Assembly: GCA_951406725.2 (NCBI GenBank)
Contig: OX597831.1
Location: 79,856,001 to 79,920,000, forward strand
DNA from: Octopus vulgaris
Lineage: Eukaryota
Length of the DNA stretch: 64,000 nt
Direction: 5' to 3'
The notes under the pieces were generated by a model, which ran no database searches, was not told where the DNA came from, and saw only the letters and a list, made by a program, of their open reading frames with translations. Both the position numbers and the translations under genes were made by a program. Below, one piece after another: positions 25,255 through 58,882 of the stretch; within the stretch, counting starts at the first letter, position 1, and every line of letters starts with the position of its first letter.

Positions 25255-25470
25255 GTAACCTTGTGGATCGTTAGGATTTTTCCCTCCGTCTTCCTTTACT
25301 CTTGAACATTGCTTCGTCTCCTGTTACTGACGAAGAGCTTTGCTTGAAACGTAAAACTGCTTTTGTTTCCTTCCCTGAGCATCTGTTAATACTTTGCATG
25401 TACTACGTGCTATAGCCGTTGTTTTTTCTTGTGTTTTTTTCTTCGTCTTTGTTTTTTGTTTTGGATTAAC
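25255..25470 (+). mobile_element. Short (TA)n-flanked non-coding element carrying a hammerhead motif (25323-25357)
   Basis: CTGACGA-A-GAGC-TTT-GCTT-GAAACGTA; homologous to 34690-34826, 59098-59290 and 40405-40600 (-). Confidence 0.65.
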
Positions 25471-26615: not shown

Positions 26616-26994
26616 AAAAAAATCAACCAAACAACAAAACAACCATCCAATAAACAAAGACACCAACGAACCCAGCCAACCAATCAAAAAGAGAATTCAA
26701 TCAAACAAACATAACAACTGACCAATCAGCACGTCGGACACACCTCTCACAGTCGTTAACCAGTTCCAACCAGTTCCAACCAACCAAGTGAATAACTTGA
26801 TGTTGATCAGCCGAGCGTTTTATGGACGTTATTTCGATAAACATCTCTCTTATTACTCAGCCATTATTGTTGATGTTGTTAATGTTGTATAGGGTGTATA
26901 TTGTATGAGACAAACTCCCACCAATGCGCAACCACCACGACTACCACTGCTACTTCTGCTCCTACAGCAGGTTCTGCCACAACCACTGCTACTG

Positions 26995-27036
<42 letters not shown>

Positions 27037-27043
27037 ATACTAA

Positions 27044-27256
<213 letters not shown>

Positions 27257-27348
27257 TAATAACAACAATAATAATAATAATAACAATATTAAGAAGAAGA
27301 AGAATGATGATGATGACGACAACAACAACAACAATAATAATAATAATT

Positions 27349-27546
27349 AAAATAGAAATTAGCAAAATGCGGAACCTGATGACTAAAACAATACCTGTTG
27401 TCATAGGTGCCTTGGGAATGATATCAAAAGGGGCTGATTGCTGCCTAGCTCAGATACCAGGAAACCCCAAAATGGCAGAAATTCAAAAGATAGTGCTCAT
27501 GGGAACTGCTCATATCCTCCGAAAAATACTTTCTATGTAATCTCAA
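27349..27546 (+). mobile_element. Duplicate 3'-terminal ORF fragment of the R4/Dong element
   Basis: KIEISKMRNLMTKTIPVVIGALG...HILRKILSM* is colinear with 30470-30666 with scattered substitutions; abuts (TAA)n on the left. Confidence 0.9.
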
Positions 27547-30500
27547 CGATTCTGTGTGGTGAAAAGATTAGAAAACGGCAACATTCCCACAAAATGCCTT
27601 TTTGGCAAAAATGTATTCAACACCAAATTAAGCTACTTAGGTCTGACAAAGAATGTTTGAAGAACCTCAAGTTTGACAAACTTTTGATTTCCTGCCATTT
27701 TGGGGTTTCCTGGTATCTGAATTAGGTAGCAATCAACACCTTTTGCTATCATTCTCAGGGCACCTATGACAACAGGTATTGTTTTAGTCTTCAGGTTCCA
27801 TATTTTGCTGATTTCTATTTCAAGATTTTTATATTTGCTCAGTTTTTGGTAGGTATTGACAGATACGTTTATATTGATTGGAACAGTCATATCAATGAGG
27901 AGGCATGTTTTTTGTCTGAAGTCTTTCAATGTGATGTCTGTCAGTTTGAATGGTGAAGTTCCAGAGGAGTGAGATGTGTTCATTTTCAAGTACTGGAAGT
28001 GGTTTGTGCTCCCAACAGTTTAACTACGAAACCTACAAAAACCCGAAAATTAATGAAAAAATATAATATGAAAACCATACTTGACATTGAGGCCACCAAA
28101 AAAACCCATCAAGCAAAATGTATGTGCTAAAGCTGCCCGCATAGCGAGGTATGAAAAGCGCGTTAGATTCTTCAAGTACAATAACATGTCCAAAAATAAC
28201 CTCAAATAACCTCCTTTTACAGGAAGATAAGGAAAACACCAGTTACTGTAAAGTCTGTCCCATCAAAAGAAGTGCAGGGATTTTGGAATAAAATTTGGGC
28301 AGAAGAAAACACACACAATGAATAGGCCCCCTGGATTGATAGAATATCTACAGAACTGGACTCCTTGGAAGAGCAAAAGTGGGAGGGTGTCAAGGTAGAA
28401 GATGTAAGATCTGCTCTCAGGAGGTCAAGCAAATGGAAGTCTCCAGGAAAGGATAAAATTCCTAACTTCTGATTGAATGCCTTCCCAGAGAGCCATGAAC
28501 TGCTAACAGAACTTTACAATTATGTTTTGCAATATCCTAGTATGATGCCCTCTTGGCTAGTTAATGGTTTAACATTCCTGCTTCCAGAAAAATGAAGAAA
28601 CAAATTAACCAAAACTTATAGATTCATAACCTGCTTAACAAATATGTACAAAACACTAACATCTATCCTGACTGAATATACCTATAGTTTTTTAATATAA
28701 AGTAGTATATTCCCTAATGAGCAAAAAGGGTATAAACGTGGATCCTATGGTTGTAAAATCAGCTACTCATCAATAAGATGATCTTAGAAGATTGTCACAA
28801 ACGACACAAAAACTTATCAATAGCCTGGACAGACTATAAAAAGGATTTTGATAGCCTACCACGTAGCTGGATAAAGAAATGCCTGGAAATTTATAAAATA
28901 GTCTGTAAGTATGAGATCATGGAGAACCACACTAACTTTGAACAGTGACGATGAATCTCGTAATGCTGGAGATGTAAAAATTTCATGTGGCATTTTCCAG
29001 GGTGACTCACTATCACCACTCCTCTTTTGTTTAGCCTTAATACCTTTCTCAAAATTGCTCAACGATGCGCAGTACGGATATAAAATGTTTGAAAAAAATA
29101 TAAATCATCTCATTTACATGGATGATTTAAAGGTTTTGCAAAAAATTACCAACAACTCAAGGGCTTACTAGCGATTGTTAAACAATTCAGTGATGACATC
29201 AGAATGCAATTCGGCCTTGATAAATGTGCAAAATCTACCTTTATCAAAGGAAAAATGACAGAAACATCTAACGTTAACCTTGACCAGCAGCATGTCATAA
29301 AAGAGTTAGACCCAGCGGAGAGCTACAAATACCTAGGGGTACTTGAAGGGAACGGAATCAGGTATTCAGTGATGAGGGAAAGGATTAGGAGAGAATGTTA
29401 TCGCAGGGTGAGAGCAATACTTAATACAGAGATGAATGCAAGAAACAGGACCGAAGCGATCAATGATTTAGCCATACCAGTCGTGACTTACAGTTTCAAT
29501 ATCGTTAACTGGTCAATTACTGAAATATGTAATCTTGACAGAAAAATACGAAAACTGTTGACAATGCATAGAATGCACCACCCTAAGGCAGATACAGAAC
29601 GACTTTATCTACCAAGAAAAGAGGGAGGCCGTGGACTTTTACAACTGGCAATAACAATGAAGATTGCTACAATTGGCCTAGACACCTACGTGAAAAATTC
29701 TGAGGACTGGATGTTAAAACTTGTCTCAAAACATGAAAACAAGAAAGCATCATACTCAGTAACAAAACAGGCAAAGGAATATCTAAGTGAATTCCAAATA
29801 CAACAAATTCAGGAATTAGGCATACAAGAAACAAGCACAGAAAAAGCTAAGCGCATGAAAACCCGTGCTAAAGCTGCTGCCTTAGATATTCTGACTGATA
29901 AATGGCAAGAAAAACCTCTCAATGGGAAATACCCAAAGAGAGCGAATAATGCCGATGTTGACAAAACCCTGACCCATCAATAGCTAATAGCCTCTGGACT
30001 AAAATCTGAAACAGAAGGGTTTACCATAGCAACCCAAGATCAATTTCTACCTACAAGGAACTACCAGGCCAACATATTAAAGAACGGCAGTACATGTCGT
30101 GTATGTCAACAACAAAATGAAACCATTGATCATGTTGTCTCCAAGTGCAGTCTTCTTGCGCCTACAGAGTATCCCAACAGGCATGACAGAGCTGCACAAT
30201 ATATTCACTGGGTAATCTGCAAAAACCTGGATTTGCCCCATGAAAAAACTGGTGGGAACTCAAACCACCTCCAGTGCTTGAAAATGACCACATCTCACTC
30301 CTCTGGAACTTCACCATTCAAACTGACAGAAAGATAGTCGCGAATAGGCCAGACATCATAGTAAAAGACTTCAGACAAAAAACATGCCTCCTCATTGATA
30401 TGACTGTCCCAATCGATATAAACGTATCTGTCAATACCTACCAAAAACTGAGCAAATATAAAAATCTTGAAATAGAAATCAGCAAAATATGGAACCTGAA

Positions 30501-30850
30501 GACTAAAACAATACCTGTTGTCATAGGTGCCCTGAGAATGATAGCAAAAGGTGTTGATTGCTACCTAATTCAGATACCAGGAAACCCCAAAATTGCAGAA
30601 ATTCAAAATATAGTGCTCATGGGAACTGTTCATATCCTACGCAAAATACTTTCTATGTAATCTCAAGTTTTAAAACAAACAAAATTTTCATGTTTTTTTT
30701 AGACATTCACTAGTACAACAAAAAATACAGAACCAAATAAATGGCACCCTAGGCATAACACCAACACGAACTTCCAACTTGTTGTCGCTTGAGGTCTCTG
30801 GGTGAGACTTGAAGCCAACTTGTACAAATGTAAAGGAAAAGTCAAACATA
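27547..30850 (+). mobile_element. Decayed, 5'-truncated R4/Dong-clade non-LTR retrotransposon (RT plus restriction-like endonuclease)
   Basis: N-terminal PFWQK..Q..I.LLR.D and ARIARYEKR..F..NN, FWNKIW...HN..A.WI; RT motifs WKSPGKD, EQKG, GIFQGDSLSPLLF, YMDD, MQFGLDKC, YKYLG, RLYLPRKEGGRGL; CCHC knuckle CRVC...ETIDHVVSKC; RHD; RPDI...LLID...KLSKY endonuclease; multiple stops and frameshifts; ends in (TAA)n. Confidence 0.92.
27681..28021 (-). mobile_element. Inverted copy of the endonuclease region inserted in the element's N-terminal coding part
   Basis: Reverse complement of ~30246-30608; ORF track 27633-27989 gives KDFRQKTCLLIDMTVP...QIPGNPK. Confidence 0.92.
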
Positions 30851-37673: not shown

Positions 37674-37728
<55 letters not shown>

Positions 37729-37760
37729 AATGAAATAAAAAACTGAACACAAAGGATGTC

Positions 37761-37848
37761 GCGGTACACATGTTTCGAGCTTTATAAAACAACATATTCT
37801 TATATCAATGTATAATCGACATAACAGATAGTTTAAAGCCCTCTTCAG

Positions 37849-37852
<4 letters not shown>
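37761..37852 (-). ncRNA. Type I hammerhead ribozyme motif with extended stem II
   Basis: Minus strand GCGG-CTGAAGA-GGGCTTTA...TAAAGCTC-GAAAC-ATGT-GTA-CCGC; all core nucleotides canonical; stem I 4 bp, basal stem II 8 bp plus distal TTATGTCGAT/ATTGATATAA helix. Confidence 0.8.
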
Positions 37853-37915
<63 letters not shown>

Positions 37916-45897: not shown

Positions 45898-46044
45898 ATC
45901 GCTTCTCGGCCTTTTGGCTAAGATCAAATATAGTATCTGTTCTTATGAGCTTAATATCTGATACAGCTCCTATTTGGGGCCATCGATAATAAACTGATTT
46001 TTAGAACGAGGTAAAGTGTTAGGGGCTTGCTCAGCCTTTGCCAC
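45898..46044 (+). pseudogene. U2 snRNA pseudogene, 3'-truncated
   Basis: ATCGCTTCTCGGCCTTTTGGCTAAGATCAA is the U2 5' end; TAGTATCTGTTCTTAT..., TTAATATCTGATAC, Sm-like GATTTTTA and GGGGCTTGCTC follow; stem-loop IV absent; the upstream sequence is a LINE fragment and (TA)n rather than a promoter. Confidence 0.92.
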
Positions 46045-46057
46045 TCTTATTTTATAA

Positions 46058-46225
46058 GCGTAGGAGTGGCTGTGTAGTAAGTAGCTTGCTTACGAATCAC
46101 ATGGTTCCGGGTTCAGTACCACTGAGTGGTATCTTGGGCAAGTGTCTCCTAACTATTGCCTCGGGCCCAACAAAGCCTTGTGAATGGATTTGGTAGACGG
46201 AAACTCAAACAAGCTCGTCGTATTT
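46058..46225 (+). mobile_element. SINE family B, 5' half
   Basis: GCGTAGGAGTGGCTGTGTAGTAAG...GGATTTGGTAGACGGAAACT. Confidence 0.85.
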
Positions 46226-58839: not shown

Positions 58840-58882
58840 CCACCTGACGAATGTCATTGAAGACATGAAACGATTGTAGTGG
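58840..58882 (+). ncRNA. Minimal type I hammerhead ribozyme motif, canonical core
   Basis: CCAC-CTGACGA-ATGTC-ATTGAA-GACAT-GAAAC-GATT-GTA-GTGG: stem I CCAC/GTGG, stem II ATGTC/GACAT, short stem III AC/GT; predicted cut after 58878. Confidence 0.82.

Follow-up and report, generated by a model that had tools for sequence, protein, structure and literature searches.

A probable truncated Hydra-type element between two (TA)n tracts

We find that the island separating two (TA)n tracts in the window, the 64,000-nt stretch of Octopus vulgaris DNA analysed here, is best explained as the last 127 bases of a single copy of a Hydra-type Penelope-like element (PLE), likely truncated during reverse transcription primed in the TA repeat; we assign this reading a probability of about 92%. 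We consider the island an extremely 5'-truncated insertion because its relatives continue upstream, because their 5' ends are scattered, because an ORF lies upstream of the hammerhead in the family, and because the tail of the island corresponds to the 5' UTR of the element. The remnant, a hammerhead with a short tail, occupies 37726..37854 on the minus strand, as delimited from the sequence and from its relatives, and the AT at 37853-37854 (the last 2 nt of the element) is common to the island and the TA tract. Both flanking tracts are perfect repeats: the tract on the 3' side of the element (37676..37726) is the likely target site, and the tract on its 5' side (37853..37903) occupies the place of the upstream 3' UTR of other copies. 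A target-site duplication is unreadable inside the TA tract of the window copy.

The island contains a complete type I hammerhead motif (37761-37852, minus strand). The 5' strand of helix I (GCGG, 37849..37852, from sequence and alignment) is followed by the 5' half of the catalytic core (CUGAAGA, 37842..37848), a long stem II of 65 nt (37777..37841, from folding and alignment) and the 3' half of the core (GAAAC, 37772..37776), both halves being identified from the sequence and from the cores of the family. After GAAAC, the minus strand reads AUGU, GUA and then CCGC, the 3' strand of helix I (37761..37764). Helix III (37766..37773) forms 2 bp in the monomer and is a self-complementary 8-mer that would pair two ribozymes. 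Thus, the CUGANGA and GAAA core elements, A15.1-U16.1, an NUH triplet and helices I-III in type I order are all present. Stem II folds into a basal helix of 8 bp (37834-37841 with 37777-37784) and an inner helix of 10 bp (37815-37824 with 37800-37809), and the cleavage site is predicted after GUA (37764..37765), from the sequence and the hammerhead consensus. The remaining 35 nt (37726..37760) are the short form of the tail, the start of the element's 5' UTR, as judged from the 3' ends of other copies and from the complete copy L230 described below; this tail stops at the nearer of two 3' ends preferred by the family.

The first-pass annotation had described a minus-strand hammerhead between two (TA)n tracts, beginning at stem I and followed by a tail of only ~35 nt, and the sequence reads as described, with 35 nt between CCGC and the TA tract. 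The cut position that it proposed, 37765|37764, agrees with the predicted layout of the motif, and its stem II of about 65 nt with a second helix was borne out. It also stated that other motifs in the window are short in stem II; indeed, hammerhead-like cores with a short stem II begin at 25327 (+), 34708 (+), 40528 (-), 58844 (+) and 16328 (-), and are probably the ends of other Penelope-like families. The motif at 58844 was found again in locus L152. In all, the window contains 10 matches to the core pattern, compared to 1.7 expected.

Two further features of the window were noted. A sequence resembling U2 snRNA at 45898-46089 (+), which scores 124.6 bits, has two changes in the stretch that recognises the branch site and a weak 3' end, and is either a variant or a pseudogene. 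Broken fragments of LINE-type reverse transcriptase (RT) lie at 28900-30660 (+) and 26850-28020, and their C-terminal part occurs in both orientations.

Folding and conservation of the long stem II

Stem II taken alone (65 nt) folds better than 197 of 200 shuffled sequences (z -2.8), while 3 of the 200 do as well; the whole island folds no better than its shuffles (z 0.11). In the basal helix the bases pair with probabilities of 0.80-0.97, and in the inner helix with probabilities of 0.86-0.99; the values are low for the 4 bp of stem I (0.14) and the 2 bp of the monomeric stem III (0.09). The Rfam hammerhead models gave no match to the island, either at the gathering score or at E values up to 10, where only TA-driven matches were reported; the length of stem II probably explains the missed match.

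A long stem II characterises the whole family, not only the island. Among 76 distinct cores, the two halves are separated by 51-70 nt, with two exceptions, both of them copies with deletions (36 and 48 nt). The motif is not due to chance, since hundreds of copies of the family have retained its core. By the first-pass annotation, homologues that failed to retain CUGANGA/GAAA would have counted against its reading. RNAalifold, applied to 16 chosen copies, did not recover the hammerhead fold and gave a different, weak structure; we therefore examined the fold as a named structure. In these 16 copies, 94.4% of the cells in the helices are paired, compared to 30-47% when the helices are slid, and double-sided changes occur in 3 of 26 helix pairs, with one basal stem II pair alternating among G-C, G-U and A-U. 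The covariation score was equalled by 10 of 500 shuffles, and the other measures by 40-318. A distal extension of helix I was considered and set aside, as it was inconsistent over six copies.

The 8-mer of helix III is mostly self-complementary among the 76 cores, with a duplex energy of -6 to -10 kcal/mol, and its centre is CG, UG or UA depending on the subfamily, self-complementary each time. We do not take this as proof of dimer pairing because CpG decay gives the same series.

Copy number and 5' ends of the family

To the first-pass annotation the island was either a distinct ribozyme-only mobile unit or a 5'-truncated terminal repeat that targets TA microsatellites, and a genome-wide copy number was to be obtained. 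In the 2.8-Gb genome of the species itself, the search gave 1,324 candidates, 40 of which were scored and yielded 41 matches of 95-100% identity; the nearest relative of the window copy is 98% identical. A 23-mer spanning the cut site has 368 exact matches and its reversed control has none, so the island belongs to a dispersed repeat and is not single-copy. A younger sister family, with a stem II region of 51 nt, has 1,691 exact matches. In a separate observation, an older family member is represented by seven copies of equal score in G000 C35, C36, C21 and C1 (L110). Five of the seven are on two small contigs, which suggests a large recent segmental or tandem duplication.

The sequence shared among copies extends upstream of stem I in all 29 of the non-self close loci that were fetched, and genome-wide 325 copies retain the natural upstream bases. 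We determined 5' ends for the first 30 of the 368 matches by coordinate, a sample not picked for likeness to the island, in which two pairs represent the two arms of one insertion; the ends are approximate, as they derive from BLAST against four natural copies. They spread from about -14 to -865 relative to the cut, with no pile-up at stem I, and 8 of the 30 copies are shorter than the window copy and break inside the ribozyme. None of the 30 ends within 5 nt of the 5' end of the window copy (-88 to -90). An inverted piece of the family is found at the 5' junction in 13 of the 30.

These data bear on whether a retrozyme-like mini-element that begins at stem I is copied in trans as a ribozyme-only unit, which we consider scarcely credible. 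Naked cassettes do recur, since nine matches genome-wide begin at stem I behind an ATAT flank, two of this subfamily (window copy included) and seven of sister subfamilies. Four of the nine are short cassettes between simple repeats, the window copy and three from sister subfamilies, but they represent separate truncation events because each has its own stem II sequence and they differ in subfamily; of the others, four are inversion junctions and one has a long tail. None of the 30 sampled copies begins at stem I, and the locus has no tandem monomers. Thus, the proposal of a distinct mobile unit fails against upstream continuation in 325 copies, compared to two of the subfamily that start at stem I, and against the scatter of truncation points in the sample. 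Non-LTR animal retrozymes consist of short tandem monomers, each with a hammerhead and none with an ORF. The octopus family resembles them in having a non-coding interspersed repeat with a type I hammerhead, but differs in being tied to an ORF that encodes RT and endonuclease, and the island consists of one truncated piece; we therefore rejected this classification.

A second alternative is that a longer insertion was later pared down by deletion or recombination between TA tracts. TA tracts are unstable, the island lies between perfect (TA)n repeats, and 2 nt (AT) overlap at its 5' junction. Nevertheless, the 98% identity to the nearest relative implies that little time has elapsed, and short, variable 5' ends are the norm of the family; we regard later paring as very unlikely. 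The other proposal of the first-pass annotation, a 5'-truncated terminal repeat at TA microsatellites, holds in the form favoured here, in which the island is the 3' end of a Hydra-type PLE.

The parent element

Upstream of the hammerhead, unique 3' UTR extends for ~900 bp; beyond it we encountered first simple repeats and then T-rich sequence, before reaching the end of an ORF that encodes an RT and a GIY-YIG-type endonuclease. A non-coding unit of 1.1 kb with a fixed 5' end was rejected, as that 'end' is the start of the simple-repeat stretch in the 3' UTR. The 3' UTR is 1.9-4.3 kb long and rich in simple repeats. The five best genomic matches of the endonuclease domain all lie upstream of the family 3' UTR on the same strand, and four of these five loci reach the hammerhead. 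We then considered 17 further endonuclease matches, picked by protein score alone, with hammerheads identified by BLAST and by pattern: in 13 of these loci a hammerhead of the family follows on the same strand at no more than 6.4 kb (in one it is cut off inside stem II), and the other four loci have none. At L142 and L143, RT and endonuclease frames are followed, after 3.3 and 4.3 kb, by a hammerhead 92-94% identical to the island.

The ORF was not seen intact in the island's own subfamily, in which the five copies examined are broken or partial; their pieces share 53-80% identity with the sister protein. The younger sister family carries long open frames, and the island's subfamily may be mobilised in trans by it. 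A complete repeat-ORF-repeat copy of this sister (L230:880-8960) consists, in order, of an inverted truncated copy, a 3' UTR, a hammerhead, a 5' UTR, the ORF (with one frameshift), a 3' UTR, a hammerhead, a tail and a microsatellite. Its hammerheads are 4,684 bp apart, and its start codon lies 197 nt past the cut site. The longest tail of the island's subfamily is 77% identical to the 5' UTR of L230 over 184 nt, and from this match we take the 35-nt tail of the island to be the start of the 5' UTR of the next unit. Many endonuclease matches share a single score, pointing to recent activity of the sister family. Loci L231 and L232 contain tandem units of ~8.1 kb, each with a sister hammerhead and gag-like frames.

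Probable assignment to the Hydra clade

An ORF with both RT and GIY-YIG endonuclease, linked to a hammerhead, marks the family as Penelope-like, and variable 5' truncation, a partial tandem repeat, an inverted 5' copy and an optional tail are all present; truncation, inversion and the tail are described as PLE hallmarks in PMC8557442. The Hydra clade is distinguished there by DKT, CxCx5C, CxxC and CxH motifs, by (TA)n targets and by hammerheads. The sister protein, 842 aa in L159, has YRDD, DKT in place of DKG, CxCx5C, CxxC and CxH, lacks CCHH and has no CxxC separating the VIY strand from the YIG strand; together with insertion into (TA)n and a 3' hammerhead, these are the features of Hydra. 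At the position matching the Hydra RWK motif, the protein reads RRIRWAA. A Pfam search with four proteins gave one weak RT match (RVT_1, E 0.011) and no match to GIY-YIG. There were 399 homologues at E 1e-10; among the 120 listed, identity is ~30-40%, at least two are from Argonauta and at least one is named as a GIY-YIG endonuclease. The Hydra placement rests on motifs and on comparison by eye with a published alignment, not on a tree: the sister protein follows the Hydra rows of the alignment in PMC8557442 and is distinct from Hydra-1_Obim.

Compared with the members of the clade described in PMC8557442 (Hydra-1_Obim, Hydra-1_Amil, Penelope-n_HM), the octopus element likewise has a single ORF with RT followed by a C-terminal GIY-YIG-type endonuclease, no CxxC inside the GIY-YIG core, a hammerhead near the 3' end, (TA)n targets and inverted 5' copies. 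It differs in size, as Hydra elements are generally <3 kb by that account, a tendency rather than a diagnostic, while the octopus unit is 4.7 kb with its long 3' UTR and an Asn-rich linker. It also has RWA instead of RWK, and the core halves are mostly 51-70 nt apart, compared to 12-26 nt in the Hydra entries of File S2 (PMC8557442; 26 rows). Both the hammerhead and the protein are clearly different, by eye, from those of Hydra-1_Obim. A precedent for a long stem is PLE-X1_sMoe of spike moss (File S2, PMC8557442), with a stem II region of ~54 nt, but that element is of the endonuclease-less Chlamys type and targets 28S rDNA. We found no paper on this long-stem Hydra-type family in the open-access literature, and it appears to be undescribed. 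Poseidon-like and other Penelope-like fragments adjoin copies of the family, and these TA-rich sites are used by several PLE lineages; the Poseidon-type and other RT fragments near L073, L074, L110 and L143 were rejected as the parent, being unrelated neighbours or on the opposite strand.

The ribozyme itself is similar to the minimal type I hammerheads of metazoan PLEs in PMC4209133, for which a helix I of 4-5 bp, a helix II of 7-8 bp and a palindromic helix III are reported. The likeness extends to a helix I of 4 bp, a basal helix II of 8 bp, a G10.1-C11.1 pair, a short self-complementary helix III that points to activity as a dimer, and occurrence mostly as solitary motifs of truncated PLEs. 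Unlike the minimal type described there, the island has a distal helix II extension of 49 nt with the second, 10-bp helix and lacks an unpaired base between positions 9 and 10.1. The window copy pairs G-C directly at that place, where sister subfamilies mostly have an A-C mismatch.

Two preferred 3' ends and an optional tail

The family has two preferred 3' ends, ~75 nt apart. They are situated ~40 and ~115-120 nt beyond the hammerhead, where the sequence is AU-rich, with a small hairpin between them, and a TA-rich simple repeat nearly always follows. Among 30 copies of the island's family, 17 have the short end, 12 have the long end and one is the reference itself; in the sister family, 14 are short, 15 are long and one runs into the ORF (n=30). 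An optional tail is known in PLEs (PMC8557442), but the ~75-nt tail here is longer than in the Hydra elements described there. The hairpin in the tail (L007:1425-1504 and relatives, minus strand) is conserved in the alignment, with modest support: 90% of cells are paired, compared to 28-44% when it is slid, both partners change in 2 of the 16 pairs, one pair changes from G-C to A-U between subfamilies, and the score was equalled by 7 of 500 shuffles. This hairpin is a candidate docking site for the RT.

The pattern resembles that of PAc, a Poseidon element of the green anole (PMC11167929), in which the RT is reported to start internally at two sites, on RNA that is mostly uncut. The two share a pair of preferred 3' ends downstream of the hammerhead, AT-rich insertion sites and copies that span the cut site. 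PAc belongs to another clade, however, and its ends are 30-40 nt apart rather than ~75; moreover, the octopus ends fall in the 5' UTR and not in the ORF, and both look TA-like, whereas PAc starts at a non-homologous site (PMC11167929). The TA-like ends of the octopus family suggest priming by short homology.

If the truncated-insertion reading is correct, the endonuclease of the element would have nicked (TA)n and the RT would have primed at the nearer AU-rich site, inside read-through RNA, the alternative starts being ~40 or ~115-120 nt past the hammerhead. The template must have been uncut or re-ligated at the cut site because copies span it. Copying would have halted early, after ~127 nt, with the 2-nt AT overlap, and the boundary at stem I would have arisen by chance. 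In the parent element, the ribozyme likely processes tandem transcripts into single units, acting as a dimer or helped by protein.

Activity of the orphan ribozyme

It was proposed that the island could cut a host transcript if it lies in an intron on this strand. Whatever its origin, we consider it highly improbable that the orphan is now an active ribozyme that cuts host pre-mRNA from the minus strand. The core and all helices are intact, and truncation would have removed an upstream stretch that, in longer copies, is predicted to cover the core or helix I by base pairing: a hammerhead-like fold is calculated to cost 1.3 kcal/mol above the best fold in the window copy and 3.6-9.7 kcal/mol in five longer copies. 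Against this, the monomer has only 2 bp in helix III (pairing probability 0.09) and a helix I at 0.14, and it is predicted to be a poor ribozyme. In the assays reported in PMC4209133, PLE minimal hammerheads did not cleave as monomers and were weakly active as dimers, and the anole hammerhead required the protein of its element (PMC11167929). We found no sign of selection on the window copy and no host exon or gene strand: in a Pfam search with 150 of the 170 candidate frames, no non-retroelement family was matched, and the two frames that gave a match have retroelement domains. Pieces of the family occur in four sequencing runs in contig form, whose RNA origin is a guess and which have no bearing on expression, strand or ends. 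Cutting of a host transcript by the island is possible but unlikely, and the orphan, with no promoter, ORF or partner, is most likely inert.

A more speculative model, which we regard as a long shot, would make the hammerhead a switch. The upstream strand would mask the core and truncation at stem I would unmask it; naked cassettes would pair with family transcripts through helix III and cut host pre-mRNAs, and the long stem II together with the tail hairpin would serve in docking of the RT.

Significance of the family

The locus itself is ordinary transposon debris. The long stem II allows the family to escape Rfam and hammerhead screens that assume a short spacer. If lone copies did cleave, the genome would contain thousands of latent cut sites. 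The young sister family has long open frames and many copies that are almost identical; it provides a Hydra-clade system for the function of PLE hammerheads, and it bears on the question of whether the PLE template is uncut or re-ligated RNA.
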